From the sequence record OR594184: a stretch of DNA of 39,471 nucleotides, one strand, 5' to 3'. Of this stretch, positions 11,590 to 26,375 are shown in pieces. The position numbers and the translations under genes were made by a program. The number at the start of each line of letters is the position of its first letter. Position 1 is the first letter of the stretch. The notes beneath the pieces are model-generated. The model searched no databases and had not been told where the DNA came from. It worked only from the letters and a program-made list of their open reading frames with translations. Source of the DNA: Escherichia phage vB_EcoM_SHAK9454.

Positions 11590-12288
11590 ATGGCTAAAGA
11601 GCAACTGAAGACTTTCACCACTCCGGTAGCTGGTATCGTTGAGCCTTACGCATGGCTGAACAAAGCAGACACCAAGTTTAACGAGCGTGGTGAGCATAAG
11701 GTTAACCTGACATTCGACCTGAGCAACCATAAGGTCCGTAAGATGATTGATGTCTTACAGAAGATTCACGACGATGCGTATGCAAAAGCACTCGCAGACC
11801 ACGAGAAGAACCCACCTCAGGTTCAGCGTGGCAAGAAGCCTATTGAACCACGAGAAGGCGACATGCCGTGGATTGAGAATGGTGACGGTACTGTTACCCT
11901 TAAGTTTAAATGCTTTGCGTCTTACCTGAAAGACGGCAAGTCCGAGCCTATCGTATTACGGTTCTACGACACCGATGCTAAACTCATCCGTGACGTCCCG
12001 AATATCTGCGCTGGGTCTAAGCTGAAGGTCAAGTTTAAAGTCCTGCCGTTCAAGTGGAACGCTGCGACTGGTGCAAGCGTTAAGCTTCAGCTTGAGTCCT
12101 GCCTTCTGGTAGAACTGAAGGAGTGGAAAGGCGATGGTGCTGGTGGCGATGGTGGCTGGGGTGATGATGAAGACCTTGGTACTGGCTACAAAGCGTCAAC
12201 CGTTGGTGACTTCGGTGACGATGACTTCGGTGACGATGGTTCCGAAGGTGGTGACGACTCCAACTCTGGTGGCGATTACGACTTCTAA
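11590..12288 (+). CDS. Single-stranded DNA-binding protein (T7 gene 2.5-like)
   Basis: 232 aa, same length as T7 gp2.5; acidic C-terminal tail ending DYDF; GKKP..EGDMP and VKLQLES blocks. Confidence 0.92.
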   Translation: MAKEQLKTFTTPVAGIVEPYAWLNKADTKFNERGEHKVNLTFDLSNHKVRKMIDVLQKIHDDAYAKALADHEKNPPQVQRGKKPIEPREGDMPWIENGDGTVTLKFKCFASYLKDGKSEPIVLRFYDTDAKLIRDVPNICAGSKLKVKFKVLPFKWNAATGASVKLQLESCLLVELKEWKGDGAGGDGGWGDDEDLGTGYKASTVGDFGDDDFGDDGSEGGDDSNSGGDYDF

Positions 12289-12734
12289 TGAAACTTAAAG
12301 AGAAACTGGAGGCTTACTCTGAGGTTTCTCCTAGTGGATGCTGGGAGTGGCAACTCTCCCGGTTTCCTGCTGGATATGGTCGAATATCAATAGGACGTCA
12401 GAAACAGGACTACGCTCACCGAGTTTCATACAGGGAGTACAAAGGTCCAATACCTGATGGATTGGTTGTTAGACATAAATGTGATAATCCCTGCTGCTGT
12501 AACCCTGAGCACCTTGAACTAGGTACGCAGAAGGACAACATGAGGGACTGCATGGAGCGAGGACGAAAGTCTAATCCTCCCGTATTCAAAGGAGAAGCTA
12601 ATCACAAGACTAAGCTGACCAAGGAAAACGTAGAGTTCATCTTAGAGTCTATGCTACCAGCTATAGAACTAGCCAAGATGTTTGGAGTCACACCAGCGGC
12701 TATAAACTGGAGGAGACAACATGGCTGGACGTAG
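12288..12734 (+). CDS. HNH homing endonuclease
   Basis: CWEW...GYGR...HRVSY...HKCDNPCCCNPEHLELGTQKDN motif; codon usage richer in ATA/AGA/AGG than neighbours. Confidence 0.8.
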   Translation: MKLKEKLEAYSEVSPSGCWEWQLSRFPAGYGRISIGRQKQDYAHRVSYREYKGPIPDGLVVRHKCDNPCCCNPEHLELGTQKDNMRDCMERGRKSNPPVFKGEANHKTKLTKENVEFILESMLPAIELAKMFGVTPAAINWRRQHGWT

Positions 12735-13173
12735 CATAAGCAGAGGGCATCAAGTAGGAGCCTACCGCTCTGGACTTGAAGCAAAGAACCAGGAGTGGCT
12801 TGAGAAGAATGGAGTTAAGGCTGATTACGAGGCTTATAAGATAGGCTACGTAGTCCCATCTAGCGATCATTTTTACACGCCGGACTTCGTTTTACCTAAC
12901 GGTATCATCGTGGAGACCAAAGGTATCTTCGATAGTGATGACCGCAAGAAGCACCTTCTGGTACGAGAACAGCACCCAGAGTTAGACATCCGGTTCGTGT
13001 TCTCAAGTTCCCGCTCCAAGTTATACAAAGGGTCTCCGACCACGTATGGCGCATGGTGCGAAAAGAACGGCTATAAGTATGCCGATAAGTTCATCCCGGT
13101 TGAGTGGCTGAGAGAGGCGACTGTACGTCTGCCCTCAGGTATACTCATCCCCAAGAAGAAAGGAGTTAAGTGA
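12721..13173 (+). CDS. Endonuclease I, Holliday junction resolvase (T7 gene 3-like)
   Basis: YTPDF.LPNGI.VETKG...DDRKKHLL.REQHPELDIR.VFSSSR.KLYKGSPT.YG matches recalled T7 gp3. Confidence 0.92.
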   Translation: MAGRSISRGHQVGAYRSGLEAKNQEWLEKNGVKADYEAYKIGYVVPSSDHFYTPDFVLPNGIIVETKGIFDSDDRKKHLLVREQHPELDIRFVFSSSRSKLYKGSPTTYGAWCEKNGYKYADKFIPVEWLREATVRLPSGILIPKKKGVK

Positions 13174-13625
13174 TGACTCGTAAAGCAATCATCGTTGACC
13201 TGATGGATGGTGATGCACATTCAGACAACTACAAGGCAGGACAGGAGGTCTTCGTTAAGTTCTACCATAAGTCACTCAACCCTAGTGATGGAGACCTGTG
13301 GCAGGTGTCGCATGATGGTGTCAAGTGGCTGGCCTCAATGTATGGTCGCCGCCTGAAGTTTATAGATGCTGGTGATAAACCTCAAGTCCTGCCAGCCTCA
13401 AGCGTCCCTCCTGTCACCGTTAAACGTGAAGTCCTGACCATCAACAAGATTGGTGTAGGCCAGACGTTCATCGTCCATGGAAAGCCTGAAGAAGTTTACG
13501 TGAAGATTAGCAACTCACACGTCTTCAACCATAAGCATCTCCAGATGCACACCACGGACGCACAACGCTTCACCCAGCACCTGAATCTGGTGGTCGTAGA
13601 ATTGGTGGTGTACAATGGTAAGTAA
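13173..13625 (+). CDS. Hypothetical protein (150 aa) inserted between endonuclease I and lysozyme
   Basis: AGGAG 13161-13165 then ATG 13173 overlapping the endonuclease I stop (TGATG); no recognised motif. Confidence 0.65.
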   Translation: MTRKAIIVDLMDGDAHSDNYKAGQEVFVKFYHKSLNPSDGDLWQVSHDGVKWLASMYGRRLKFIDAGDKPQVLPASSVPPVTVKREVLTINKIGVGQTFIVHGKPEEVYVKISNSHVFNHKHLQMHTTDAQRFTQHLNLVVVELVVYNGK

Positions 13626-14134: not shown

Positions 14135-15838
<1,704 letters not shown>

Positions 15839-15849
15839 GGAGGGGTACA

Positions 15850-16014
15850 TTGCTAAGAAAACTTAAAGCTCGCTACCATCGGTTCATGTACAAATGGTGG
15901 AGCGATGAAGCAACCTTCCTGTCCAACATTCTGGGAGACCAGAGGTTCAACTCTAAGGCATGGAAGAAAGCTAACCGGAAGTTTATGTACCACTTCTTGC
16001 GTACAGACTTCTAG
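15850..16014 (+). CDS. Small basic hypothetical protein (54 aa, TTG start)
   Basis: AGGAGG 15838-15843 six nt before TTG 15850; the track's longer ORF from 15817 overlaps the helicase 3' end. Confidence 0.35.
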   Translation: MLRKLKARYHRFMYKWWSDEATFLSNILGDQRFNSKAWKKANRKFMYHFLRTDF

Positions 16015-16060
16015 GTCTAGACTCAAGGTCATTCACAGCGAGTGGCCTTTATGATTAGAC
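16014..16060 (+). promoter_or_regulatory. RNase III-like hairpin (late family, R4.7-like position)
   Basis: TAGACTCAAGGTCAT ... GTGGCCTTTATGATTAGAC. Confidence 0.5.
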
Positions 16061-16082
16061 TTATAACTAAAGGAGAAGCAAT

Positions 16083-16514
16083 ATGAGGACTTGCAGTAGA
16101 TGTGGCTCTACAAAGGAGTCCACTGAGTTCAGGAAGACAAATGGGTGGTGCATATCCTGTGTTCGTGAGGATAATAGGTCGCGATATCATCGAAACAAAG
16201 GTACAGAGGCCGGTGAGGCGCATCGCTTATCTGCCCGTAAGTCTTGGCTTAAGAAAGCCTATGGTCTCACACTTGAGGAATATGACACTATGTTCGATAG
16301 TCAAAAGGGCAGATGCGCTATATGCTCAGACATTATCTTCAAGCATGGGTCTATTGAGAGTAAGAATAATGTAGCCCACGTTGACCATTGCCATGACTCG
16401 GGTATTGTTAGGGGATTGCTATGTGGTACATGTAATAGCGCACTTGGTAAGTTCGGTGACAAGGTAGCCGTGCTTAGGGCTGCTATAACGTACTTGGAGA
16501 AATATAATGTTTAA
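16083..16514 (+). CDS. Endonuclease VII-family (T4 gp49-like) nuclease with N-terminal zinc ribbon; homing-endonuclease-like insert
   Basis: CAIC...HVDHCHDSGIVRGLLCGTCNSALG matches the recalled T4 endonuclease VII motif HLDHDH..G.VRGLLC..CN; N-terminal CSRCGS...CISC; AT-rich codon usage. Confidence 0.8.
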   Translation: MRTCSRCGSTKESTEFRKTNGWCISCVREDNRSRYHRNKGTEAGEAHRLSARKSWLKKAYGLTLEEYDTMFDSQKGRCAICSDIIFKHGSIESKNNVAHVDHCHDSGIVRGLLCGTCNSALGKFGDKVAVLRAAITYLEKYNV

Positions 16515-18678
16515 TCTCAACTCATTCTATGGCACAGATATAGAGACTGACGGTCTACTAGACACTGTGTCACAGTTCCATTGTGGTGTTATCATTAACG
16601 CTGGAACTCAGGCTACTGAGAAATATGGTGTTGCCCCTATGACTGGGCTGACAGGTGGATTCAAAGAGTACATAGACCGCATAGAATCTATTATGGCATC
16701 CACTTACGGTATGCTTGTTCTGCACAATGGTGTGAACTATGATATACCAGCCTTGAAAATACTGAAGAAGAAATACTTTGGTAAGAACCTAAATGTGAAT
16801 AAGGGTCGAATTATTGATACCTTGGTACTTGGTCGCTTGATGTATCCAAACATTAAGTTCTCAGACATGGGCGCAGTGAAAGCTGGTCGTCTGCCACCTA
16901 AGATGATGGGACGCCAGTCTCTTGAGGCTTGGGGCTATCGTCTCGGTGAGATGAAAGGTGAGTACAAACACGATTACGTTGCCAAGTGCAAGGCTGAAGG
17001 TATCGAATATAAGGCTGGGGACGAATGGTTGTTCCCATCTCAGGAGATGCTGGACTATAACGTTCAGGACGTTGTGGTCACACTGGCGTTGTTCAAGAAG
17101 TTCCTGACTGACAAGTATTACTTCCAGTCTGAACAGTTCGCTTTCGACCAGATTTATGCGTTGCGTCTGGAACATGATGCTGCGTGGACCTGTGCGAAGA
17201 TGGAACGTAACGGCTATCCGATGAACACCGAGATGGTCGAAGGCTTATATCGTGAACTAACCGTCAAACGTGCAGAGCTGCTGGACAAGCTGCGTTCGAC
17301 TTTCGGTAGCTGGTACGCACCAAAGGGAGGCAAGGAGTTCTTCAAGCACCCACGGACTGGCAAGGACCTTCCGAAGTATCCGCGAGTCGTGTATCCTAAG
17401 GTCGGTGGCATCTTTAAGAAGCCGAAGAACAAAGCTCAACGCTTAGGTCTTGAACCTTGTGAGCGTGATACGCGAGACACGATGGAAGGAGCGCCTTTCA
17501 CGCCAATCACTTACGTTGAGTTTAATCCGGGAAGCGGAGACCACTTAGCGAAAGTCCTGATGGAGCGTGGCTGGGAGCCTGTAGACTTCACTGACACAGG
17601 GAAACCTGTAGTCGATGACGAGACGTTAGAACACGTTAAGTTACCAGACGCAGAGGCTCAGGCTTGCGTAGAGCTGGTCCGTGAGTACCTGGTAGTCCAG
17701 AAGCGCATCGGTCAGGCTGCTGAAGGTAAGAACGCATGGTTGAAACTTGTAGGTCCAGACGGACGTATGCACGGCTCAATAAACCCATGCGGGGCAGTAA
17801 CCGGACGTGCGACCCATAGTTCACCAAACATGGCTCAGGTCCCGGCTAACGGTGCTCCATATGGTGAGACTTGCCGTGGTGCTTTCGGTGCAGCGTGGAA
17901 CAAGAAGGACGGTAAGCCAGACCCTTGGATTCAAGTTGGTGTGGATGCCTCAGGTCTTGAGCTTCGTTGTCTTGGGAACCGAGCAGCTCCGTTTGATGGT
18001 GGTGCCTATGCGAAGACTGTGGTAGAAGGTGACATCCACTGGGCCAACGCAGTCAACGCTGGGTTAGCACCTAACGTCAAACGCGATAAGTCGAACCACG
18101 ACCATGATGCTTTCCGTAACAACGCTAAGACGTTCATCTATGCGTTCCTGTATGGTGCAGGGGCCGCTAAGATTGGACTGATAGTCGGAGGTGGTAAGAA
18201 GGAAGGTTCGGCTCTCATGAAGAAATTCATTGAGGGTACACCAGCCATCAAGGACCTCAGGGAAGCTGTGAGTAATACGTTAATCTCAGACTCTAAGTGG
18301 GTAGATGGTGAGAACATCGTTAAGTGGAAACGCCGTTGGTTGCGTGGACTTGATGGTCGCCGTATCCACATCCGGTCTCCACACTCAGCACTGAACGCAC
18401 TACTTCAAGGCGATGGTGCGGTAGTCTGTAAGCACTGGATTGTCGAGACTGAACGTATGCTCGAAGAGGCCGGGTATGTCCACGGCTGGGAAGGAGACTT
18501 TGCGTACATGGCATGGGTCCATGATGAATTGCAGATTGCGTGTCGTACTCAGGAGATTGCCGAAGAAGTCGTCAAGATTGCTCAACTTGCTATGCGTAAG
18601 GTGGGTGAGTTCTATAATTTTAAATGTGTCCTTGATACCGAAGGTAAGATTGGACCAACGTGGAAGGAGTGTCACTAA
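16507..18678 (+). CDS. DNA polymerase (T7 gene 5-like) with thioredoxin-binding loop
   Basis: 723 aa; exonuclease motif DIETDGLL; FKKPKNKAQR and PKYPRVVYPKVGGIF loop region; C-terminal DTEGKIGPTWKECH. Confidence 0.97.
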   Translation: MFNLNSFYGTDIETDGLLDTVSQFHCGVIINAGTQATEKYGVAPMTGLTGGFKEYIDRIESIMASTYGMLVLHNGVNYDIPALKILKKKYFGKNLNVNKGRIIDTLVLGRLMYPNIKFSDMGAVKAGRLPPKMMGRQSLEAWGYRLGEMKGEYKHDYVAKCKAEGIEYKAGDEWLFPSQEMLDYNVQDVVVTLALFKKFLTDKYYFQSEQFAFDQIYALRLEHDAAWTCAKMERNGYPMNTEMVEGLYRELTVKRAELLDKLRSTFGSWYAPKGGKEFFKHPRTGKDLPKYPRVVYPKVGGIFKKPKNKAQRLGLEPCERDTRDTMEGAPFTPITYVEFNPGSGDHLAKVLMERGWEPVDFTDTGKPVVDDETLEHVKLPDAEAQACVELVREYLVVQKRIGQAAEGKNAWLKLVGPDGRMHGSINPCGAVTGRATHSSPNMAQVPANGAPYGETCRGAFGAAWNKKDGKPDPWIQVGVDASGLELRCLGNRAAPFDGGAYAKTVVEGDIHWANAVNAGLAPNVKRDKSNHDHDAFRNNAKTFIYAFLYGAGAAKIGLIVGGGKKEGSALMKKFIEGTPAIKDLREAVSNTLISDSKWVDGENIVKWKRRWLRGLDGRRIHIRSPHSALNALLQGDGAVVCKHWIVETERMLEEAGYVHGWEGDFAYMAWVHDELQIACRTQEIAEEVVKIAQLAMRKVGEFYNFKCVLDTEGKIGPTWKECH

Positions 18679-25581: not shown

Positions 25582-26148
25582 ATGGCTCAATACATTCCAC
25601 TGAATGCTAACGATGACTTAGATGCCATCAACGATATGTTAGCAGCTATCGGTGAACCAGCAGTCCTACAGCTTGACGAAGGTAACGCTGACGTCTCGAA
25701 CGCTCAACGTATCCTGCATCGTGTCAATCGTCAGGTCCAAGCTAAAGGCTGGAACTTTAACATCAACGAAGCTGCTGTCCTGACACCTGATGTCCAAGAC
25801 AATAGGATTCGATTCCTGCCGTCTTACCTTCGGGTCATGACTGCTGGTGCTACCAGTTACTACAGCAACATGGGGGGCTATCTCTATGACCTGTCCACTC
25901 AGTCCACGACCTTCACTGGACCAATTACAGTCGAACTGGTGGAGATGAAACCGTTCGCTGAGATGCCTGTAGTATTCCGTGACTACATCGTTACCAAGGC
26001 TAGCCGTGAGTTCAACGCTAAGTTCTTCGGTAGCCCAGAGTCTGAACTGTACCTTCGTGAGCAGGAAGCAGAACTCTACCAGCAGGTGATGGAGTACGAG
26101 ATGGACACTGGTCGCTACAACATGATGTCCGACATCGGGAGGGACTAA
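25582..26148 (+). CDS. Tail tubular protein A (T7 gene 11-like)
   Basis: 188-aa ORF with TAAGGAG RBS immediately upstream of the tail tube B gene; T7 gp11-like size and position. Confidence 0.9.
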   Translation: MAQYIPLNANDDLDAINDMLAAIGEPAVLQLDEGNADVSNAQRILHRVNRQVQAKGWNFNINEAAVLTPDVQDNRIRFLPSYLRVMTAGATSYYSNMGGYLYDLSTQSTTFTGPITVELVEMKPFAEMPVVFRDYIVTKASREFNAKFFGSPESELYLREQEAELYQQVMEYEMDTGRYNMMSDIGRD

Positions 26149-26375
26149 TGGCTAGTCACAACCTGAAGATTCACCGCCAGCACTTTGGTCCGGTACAACT
26201 GGGTCTAAAGACAGCAGAGCTGAGACTTAACGACCGGGACTTTAAGGTTGGCGACTGGCTTATCCTGAATGAGTGGGACAACGGGTATACTGGACAACAG
26301 GTAGCACGTAAGGTTGTCCACATTGCTGACGTTGGTGACATCGCTGAGGGATACGTCCTAATGAGTATGATTTAA
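26148..26375 (+). CDS. ASCH-like / DUF3850-family small protein inserted between tail tube genes
   Basis: HNLKI..QHF..V..G.KT.ELR.NDRDF.VGDWLILNEWD.GYTG pattern matches the recalled DUF3850 consensus; ATG overlaps the gene 11 stop. Confidence 0.65.
   Translation: MASHNLKIHRQHFGPVQLGLKTAELRLNDRDFKVGDWLILNEWDNGYTGQQVARKVVHIADVGDIAEGYVLMSMI

Follow-up and report, generated by a model that had tools for sequence, protein, structure and literature searches.

Introduction

The founding member of the DHHRN, or Endo VII-motif, homing endonucleases is F-CphI of cyanophage S-PM2 (Fang et al. 2018, PMC6083498), and the family residues are defined as D40, H41, H43, R54, and N62 of T4 endonuclease VII (PMC6083498). 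An open reading frame (ORF) that encodes a 143-residue protein with this motif is found at positions 16083–16514 (+ strand) of Escherichia phage vB_EcoM_SHAK9454 (sequence record OR594184), where it adjoins the family A DNA polymerase gene at its start. The whole stretch of DNA analyzed, hereafter the window, is 39.5 kb long and corresponds to the complete, circularly permuted genome of a Kayfunavirus (T7-like) coliphage, with the gene order of T7. Like F-CphI, the ORF is a free-standing phage gene, it carries the EndoVII motif in the C-terminal half of its product after an N-terminal extension, and all DHHRN residues are conserved. Unlike F-CphI, which targets the psbA intron insertion site and lies next to an intron-containing gene, it is accompanied by no intron and adjoins the 5′ end of a polymerase gene. 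From the presence of T7 endonuclease I, Fang et al. argued that the EndoVII-motif proteins of podoviruses act in homing (PMC6083498).

Three further kinds of system offer a comparison. SegG, SegF, and MobE of T4 are free-standing homing endonuclease genes (HEGs), which are described as causing marker exclusion and co-conversion from a cut in the neighboring essential gene (Liu et al. 2003; Belle et al. 2002, via PMC6083498, PMC10448857; PMC2790892). The window gene shares with them an intergenic position beside an essential gene, a one-sided hybrid tract, and a sporadic presence among close relatives. However, those enzymes are of the GIY-YIG or HNH types, whereas the window gene has an EndoVII motif and belongs to another phage group, its co-conversion is read from natural genomes instead of crosses, and its tract is an import between lineages, at 50–64% identity, in place of the few flanking single-nucleotide polymorphisms (SNPs) of the T4 cases. 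For ICP1 and other phages, Barth, Dunham & Seed (2023, PMC10448857) reported HEGs at the boundaries of genetic exchange, as well as “HEG islands”. As in ICP1, the nuclease gene of the window is found exactly at a recombination breakpoint by an essential replication gene, and different HEGs share the site in relatives; it belongs, however, to another family than the T5orf172 and IPA-HNH enzymes of that study, and a lone HEG with a short tract takes the place of an island flanked by HEGs on both sides. Finally, HEGs are found in introns of T7-like DNA polymerase genes, so that this polymerase is again a HEG target, but the window element is placed at the 5′ end, outside the coding sequence and with no intron.

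The protein also resembles T4 endonuclease VII itself (gp49, PDB 1EN7/2QNC), with which it shares a predicted ββα-metal core, the zinc cysteines, and the Pfam family PF02945. It differs from gp49 in its N-terminal extension with four cysteines, in being dispensable in most relatives, and in the presence of T7 endonuclease I in the same genome. From sequence comparison, we consider with good confidence that the ORF is a free-standing EndoVII-motif (DHHRN) HEG, whose acquisition brought the start of the donor’s polymerase gene along with it. A first-pass annotation of the same DNA had proposed a homing event that co-converted flanking polymerase sequence from another phage, and this proposal is supported here by breakpoints, a foreign tract, linkage, and parallel cases. 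No description of the element, or of a chimeric polymerase start in Kayfunavirus, was found in the literature searched.

Results

Junctions of the nuclease gene and the polymerase tract

The limits of the inserted block were defined by comparison with the insert-less phages pO2, IME177, 22664BS1, and U8. The window is ~97% identical to them up to position 16060, and the similarity ends after ...TTAGACT. In the empty site, which reads ...TTAGACT-AAACGGAGGATTAACC-ATGTTTGACCTT, the native polymerase ribosome-binding site (RBS) and ATG follow the point of divergence directly. In the window, this point is followed by a foreign 22-nt leader (16061–16082, +) containing the nuclease gene’s own RBS (TATAACTAAAGGAGAAGCAAT), and then by the nuclease ORF. 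At the junction of the two genes (16496–16514, +), the polymerase RBS, GGAG (16496–16499), lies within the 3′ end of the nuclease gene, the stop of which shares 8 nt with the polymerase start (ATGTTTAA). The first part of the polymerase gene (16507–16833, +), which codes for motifs Exo I (DIETDGL) and Exo II (HNGxxYD), is foreign as well. Its identity to pO2 is 64% over nt 1–230 of the gene and 50% over nt 231–306, and beyond 16813–16836 the identity to native alleles rises abruptly to 94–100%. Alignment of the polymerase 5′ region with insert-less relatives, the check by which the first-pass annotation had proposed to judge its reading, is thus in agreement with it. Neither target-site duplications nor terminal or flanking repeats of significance were found at the insert.

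The resulting polymerase gene (16507–18678, +; Pfam DNA_pol_A E-value 2e-36) is chimeric but intact. Its product of 723 aa consists of a foreign N-terminal segment of ~102–109 aa joined to a native Kayfunavirus body, its frame is colinear with native alleles, and the tract is free of indels. A dN/dS value calculated against pO2 for the polymerase gene beyond the tract was discarded as invalid, due to a 15-nt indel.

Although the block is shared by all the phages that carry it, its ends vary. Two types of left junction were found: the 22-nt foreign leader is common to the window, R1, Zappy, EcSW4, and three metagenomic genomes (L021–L023, see below), whereas HC13 joins the native polymerase RBS (AAAGCGGAGGATTAAC) straight to the ATG of the nuclease gene. 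On the right side, the sequence is foreign up to 16812 in all carriers, and at least three SNP patterns follow. At the three diagnostic SNPs (16827, 16830, and 16833), the window and R1 have the foreign bases, EcSW4, HC13, and L022 have the native ones, and Zappy and L021 show a mixture of the two. To the left of the block, a small native ORF resembling gene 4.2x (~15817–16014, +; phrog_13039, E-value 1.5e-37) is 94.6–98.0% identical to that of insert-less relatives, and no more so among the carriers, which places it outside the co-converted part. The carriers do not resemble each other any more closely in the left flank, so that the tract is one-sided.

Base composition and origin of the tract

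The first-pass annotation had noticed an AT-rich stretch of ~400 nt reaching into the polymerase gene. The stretch exists, and the compositional discontinuity holds on quantitative analysis, but its length is 306–327 nt as defined by the homology breakpoints. The GC content is 0.498 for the whole window and 0.407 for nt 1–329 of the polymerase gene (16507–16835; z −2.8), with 0.40 at third codon positions (GC3); just 0.24% of windows of this length reach so low a value, and the lowest stretch of 329 nt in the genome begins at 16491. The rest of the polymerase gene has a GC content of 0.514 and a GC3 of 0.53. For the block as a whole (16061–16835, 775 nt), the GC content is 0.431, a value reached by 0.1% of windows, and the genome-wide minimum begins at 16048. 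The nuclease ORF on its own is mildly low (0.451; 9% of equal-length windows are as low). In the insert-less pO2 and IME177, the same 330 nt of the polymerase gene have a GC content of 0.48–0.49 and a GC3 of 0.61–0.62; therefore, the AT-richness belongs to the allele and not to this region of the gene.

Between the imported and native polymerase starts, the proportion of synonymous differences (pS) is 0.84, which is saturated, and that of non-synonymous differences (pN) is 0.27. This saturation indicates that the tract came from another lineage and was not mutated in place. The protein segment encoded by the tract is closest to the polymerase of Citrobacter phage CR8 (75% aa identity), followed by a bat-associated T7-like sequence (73%), and has 68% identity to native Kayfunavirus. 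Divergence in place after the insertion, under selection to escape self-cleavage, is accordingly given very little weight. The idea finds some ground in the expectation that HEG-carrying alleles are resistant to cleavage, and in phage CR44b, where another type of HEG goes with a change of only ~22 nt at the polymerase start. Against it, the tract differs from native alleles at 36–50% of its nucleotides, with saturated synonymous sites, 27% non-synonymous differences, and a GC3 lowered from 0.61 to 0.40; the carriers differ from one another by 1–4% within it; it is nearer to CR8 than to native sequence; and it gives way abruptly to ~100% identity.

Distribution among related phages

A 2.3-kb query around the locus matched 459 phage records, mostly from Kayfunavirus and its relatives, at 80–99% identity. 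Only four of them, vB_EcoP-R1, Zappy, UFJF_EcSW4, and HC13, span the full query, and the other matches listed (H5–H40) cover 67% of it. The DNA of the nuclease gene is present in exactly these 4 of the ~459 related records and missing from ~455, and the imported polymerase allele is found in exactly the same four. All three of the further ~40-kb metagenomic genomes that encode an identical protein (L021–L023) carry the imported allele too, at 98.4–98.7% identity. Linkage between the nuclease gene and the divergent polymerase allele is thus perfect. The first-pass annotation had held that the same gene at the same site in all related phages, with uniform flanks, would speak against homing; the gene is instead sporadic and the flanks are not uniform.

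The carriers do not appear to be a clade in the flanking genes, as judged by pairwise identity. In gp4 and the remaining polymerase, they are 92–97.6% identical to each other, no closer than to non-carriers: the window is 95.9% identical to the insert-less pO2 and 93.4% to the carrier R1, and for the polymerase body alone the identity is 95.9% to pO2 but only 92.3–94.9% to the other carriers. The nuclease gene and the tract, in turn, are 95–99.4% identical among carriers, above the value of the flanks.

The four carrier phages were isolated independently, in China, Thailand, Brazil, and the USA, and the cluster of the nuclease protein at 90% identity has 43 members, many of them on ~40-kb contigs. 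An assembly or chimera artefact in one sequence, for which nothing was found in favor, is barely conceivable in view of this repeated occurrence. Two NCBI entries for the identical 143-aa protein are labeled Pantoea ananatis (WP_455939285.1, ~40.7-kb contig); they probably represent a phage contig within a bacterial assembly, not a chromosomal gene.

The nuclease protein

The signature of T4 endonuclease VII, already recognized in the first-pass annotation, was confirmed by several methods. The product matches Pfam PF02945 (Endonuclease_7) with an E-value of 1.4e-24 and 86.3 bits, well above the curated gathering cutoff of 23.6 bits, residues 55–140 covering profile positions 3–82 of 82, and it also matches PHROG “endonuclease VII” families. 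In a phmmer search against PDB sequences, residues 64–127 align with residues 9–71 of T4 endonuclease VII and residues 75–142 with the restriction enzyme Hpy99I. The equivalents of T4 D40, H41, H43, R54, and N62 are D101, H102, H104, R110, and N118 (alignment to 1E7D), and C78/C81 together with C114/C117 match the zinc-cysteine motifs of T4 (CLIC...CNLC), forming a predicted zinc site. All of these residues are unchanged throughout an alignment of the protein with ten database homologues of 41–81% identity. The AlphaFold2 model (predicted local distance difference test score 88.8) comprises short N-terminal strands, three helices, and then a ββα core, with predicted strands at 99–102 and 109–113 and a helix at 115–124. 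The best Foldseek hits for this model are T4 endonuclease VII (E-value 6.5e-4, probability 1.00) and Hpy99I.

At the N-terminal end, before the helical linker, four cysteines are arranged as CxxC-x15-CxxC (C4-x2-C7...C23-x2-C26); the first pair is shared by at least 90% of homologues, and the second by a majority of them. Together with the predicted strands, they are consistent with the zinc ribbon that had been suggested for this region, which we regard as putative. The protein is maintained by selection. In comparison with a variant of 82% identity (see below), pN is 0.137 against a saturated pS of 0.855, and the differences in the gene among the carriers are mostly synonymous, which indicates purifying selection and a protein that has been kept functional.

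The Pfam hit, the similarity to T4 gp49, and the database labels (the ORF is annotated in GenBank as hypothetical or “endonuclease VII”, and its homologues as “recombination endonuclease VII”) would fit a genuine EndoVII-type Holliday junction resolvase acting in DNA maturation, with the divergence of the neighboring polymerase start being unrelated to it. We find this very improbable. The C-terminal part of T4 endonuclease VII is the dimerization region. The window protein stops ~25 aa past the catalytic motif, and its detected similarity covers the catalytic core of the T4 enzyme (residues 9–71) with no match to the C-terminal part, an extent that falls short of a resolvase of the T4 gp49 type. 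The genome encodes a T7-type endonuclease I (gene 3; 12721–13173, +; Pfam Phage_endo_I, E-value 6.8e-76), the junction resolvase of the phage, and the ORF is missing from ~455 close relatives, which together make a resolvase role unlikely. By the same argument, Fang et al. placed podovirus EndoVII-motif proteins in the endonuclease clade and not in the resolvase clade (PMC6083498).

Related loci and other nuclease genes

A second version of the arrangement was found in two metagenome contigs from ENA (L015, 147–800; L016, 539–1200). They carry a variant of the nuclease gene (82% aa, ~70% nt identity) at the same site and with the same 8-nt overlap with the polymerase gene, in flanks that are Kayfunavirus, with ~96–100% identity over most of their length. 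The foreign polymerase tract that accompanies the variant ends at ~nt 231 and is different from that of the window, being 73% identical to native alleles, 61% to the window tract, and ~80% to polymerases of the Ro45lw group. The variant, which came from a search of 5.8 billion proteins, is found in no isolate of the phage collection. It was considered as a possible donor of the window block and rejected, as its backbones are Kayfunavirus with another foreign tract.

Outside Kayfunavirus, the closest homologues (48–53% aa identity) are encoded by the Aeromonas phages T7-Ah and PZL-Ah8, the Klebsiella Przondovirus phages IL33 and BIS33, and a metagenomic T7-like genome. All of them adjoin the polymerase start, with overlaps of 8 nt in T7-Ah, 4 nt in the metagenomic contig L017, and 20 nt in IL33. 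The IL33 homologue is 49% identical to the window protein, and the IL33 polymerase gene is 66–84% identical to that of KP32 over its first ~220 nt and ~96% over the remainder. Przondovirus was rejected as a test of insert against empty site because KP32 has an unrelated gene, gene 20, in the place of the HEG; the difference between IL33 and KP32 is thus a cassette swap combined with divergence at the polymerase start, instead of a clean insertion.

The same position is used by another kind of gene. In CR44b (L004, 1079–1480) and 101118UKE1 (L005, 1112–1513), a 7.7B-like HEG with a predicted helix-turn-helix occupies the equivalent of 16061–16530 of the window. This HEG uses the native polymerase RBS and first 8 nt (ATGTTTGA) as its own, and the change at the polymerase start is limited to ~22 nt. 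The presence of 7.7B-like and EndoVII-type HEGs at one site makes the polymerase start a hotspot for at least two unrelated types of HEG.

The window has a second free-standing HEG (12288–12734, +; Pfam HNH_3, E-value 2.5e-17) between gene 2.5, encoding the single-stranded DNA-binding protein, and gene 3, the start of which it overlaps by 14 nt. This gene is absent from R1, Zappy, pO2, IME177, 22664BS1, and U8, and its site is occupied by another HNH_3 gene in EcSW4 and HC13. Compared with relatives that lack the gene of the window, the first ~170 nt of gene 3 (12740–12890) are 56–83% identical and the sequence that follows is 94–98% identical, so that the divergence is one-sided, as it is at the polymerase. 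Downstream of gene 3, there is a variable cassette (13184–13400, within an ORF at 13170–13625 with no Pfam hit), which is missing from Zappy, EcSW4, HC13, and U8 or cannot be aligned with them, and is 28–43% identical in R1, pO2, IME177, and 22664BS1.

In two of the metagenomic genomes with the identical nuclease protein, L021 (5440–6057) and L023, the polymerase gene is in addition split toward its 3′ end, at WVH/DE (...AYMAWVH, DEIQVACRTQ...), by ~617 nt containing an HNH_3 gene. By analogy, this insertion looks like the HEG-containing group I intron of T7-like DNA polymerase genes, and it is absent from the window. There, the polymerase ORF runs uninterrupted through its 723 codons, unlike an intron-split gene, and no Rfam family reaches its gathering threshold anywhere in the window.

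Genome context

The primase/helicase gene lies to the left of the locus (14138–15838). The first-pass annotation had placed the nuclease ORF between the helicase and polymerase genes, which is right, but it had omitted the gene 4.2x-like ORF that is also found between them. A phage promoter-like repeat, ~CTAAACTATCACTATAGG(G/A)A, with the 12-mer CTATCACTATAG, has nine sites in the window, none of them between gene 4 and the polymerase gene. A TAACTAAAGGAGA-like sequence at 16064 was considered as a promoter ahead of the nuclease gene and rejected, as the genome’s own promoter repeat (~CTAAACTATCACTATAGG, 9 copies) is not there. Within the polymerase body, the segment 17395–17495 has 80–86% identity to R1, EcSW4, pO2, and UKE1 but 96% to CR44b, with no nuclease gene in its vicinity. 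A 75-residue ORF with an ASCH/DUF3850 domain is found among the tail genes (26148–26375, +).

Discussion

The observations can be accommodated in the following sequence of events. The HEG would have entered Kayfunavirus from a more AT-rich, distant T7-like lineage having the same HEG–polymerase arrangement, and it would have arrived as a single block of ~750–775 bp composed of the 22-nt leader, the HEG, and the first 306–327 nt of the donor polymerase gene. In a co-infected cell, the nuclease would then cut close to the 5′ end of the polymerase allele that has no HEG, and the break would be resected and repaired by copying the HEG-carrying genome. As the donor start has only 50–64% identity to its native counterpart, not enough for strand exchange, the exchange would be resolved only beyond the tract; the HEG and a resistant polymerase start would be co-inherited in each later homing or recombination event, and the crossovers would scatter just to the right of 16812. 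We infer that the encoded nuclease made the break behind the event. The protein would cleave in a site-specific manner near the polymerase start, and the imported allele would withstand it, the tract plausibly carrying a form of the target that resists cleavage. Each of the three polymerase tracts reaches at least ~nt 220–230, where Exo II (HNGxxYD) is encoded, and this is compatible with a hypothetical cut site in or before the Exo II region.

Ordinary mosaic recombination between co-infecting T7-like phages, with the nuclease gene as a passive passenger or inactive, is the alternative that deserves the most attention, and we consider it unlikely. Several points speak in its favor and, at the same time, weigh against a homing event. 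Mosaicism is found elsewhere in the genome with no nuclease gene nearby, at 17395–17495 and 13184–13400, and the patch in the polymerase body indicates that recombination takes place without HEGs too. The perfect linkage of nuclease gene and tract could follow passively from suppressed recombination within a segment of 50–64% identity, where homology is lacking, and does not by itself prove immunity. The role of nuclease cleavage is read from sequence comparison; when the cut site was sought among the positions at which both imported alleles differ from native ones, the differences were spread over nt 1–231 and no site was singled out. The composition of the nuclease ORF itself is only mildly unusual. 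Moreover, the donor lineage was not found in the phage collection, either by DNA or by protein: outside the carriers, the best matches have 71% nt and 75% aa identity, the closest being Citrobacter phage CR8 and a bat-guano T7-like fragment, and a search of IMG/VR with the nuclease protein returned one relative of 41% identity and no donor.

Passive mosaicism, however, does not readily explain why four independent pairs of nuclease gene and tract start exactly at the nuclease gene and extend one way into the downstream essential gene. Nor would it account for purifying selection acting through saturating synonymous divergence with invariant catalytic residues, or for a block that is more conserved than its flanks in carriers that are not a clade in gp4 or in the remaining polymerase. 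Acquisition of a HEG with co-conversion of the adjoining polymerase start is, in our opinion, the reading that best combines these features.

A broader proposal can be made, to which we give slightly less than even confidence. A single EndoVII-motif HEG lineage may have specialized on the start of the family A polymerase gene across genera of Autographiviridae (Kayfunavirus, Przondovirus, and the Aeromonas T7-like phages), cutting within the Exo I–Exo II region and repeatedly moving the N-terminal ~75–110 codons between genera, which would give rise to functional chimeric polymerases and to localized marker exclusion.

The locus represents a clear but ordinary case of homing, which leaves the general understanding of the process unchanged. 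Its value lies in the natural record that it provides of homing with co-conversion in T7-like phages, for which the empty site, two HEG variants with their tracts, and variable junctions are all available in public genomes. It also offers a candidate DHHRN homing enzyme in an easily manipulated coliphage, in a family where F-CphI was the only member found to be biochemically characterized. Since the first ~330 nt of the polymerase gene may have a history of their own, caution is advisable in phylogenies and PCR markers based on T7-like polymerases. For the phage itself, the chimeric gene shows that an essential replicative polymerase can tolerate the exchange of its exonuclease N-terminus for a segment of only 68% aa identity.

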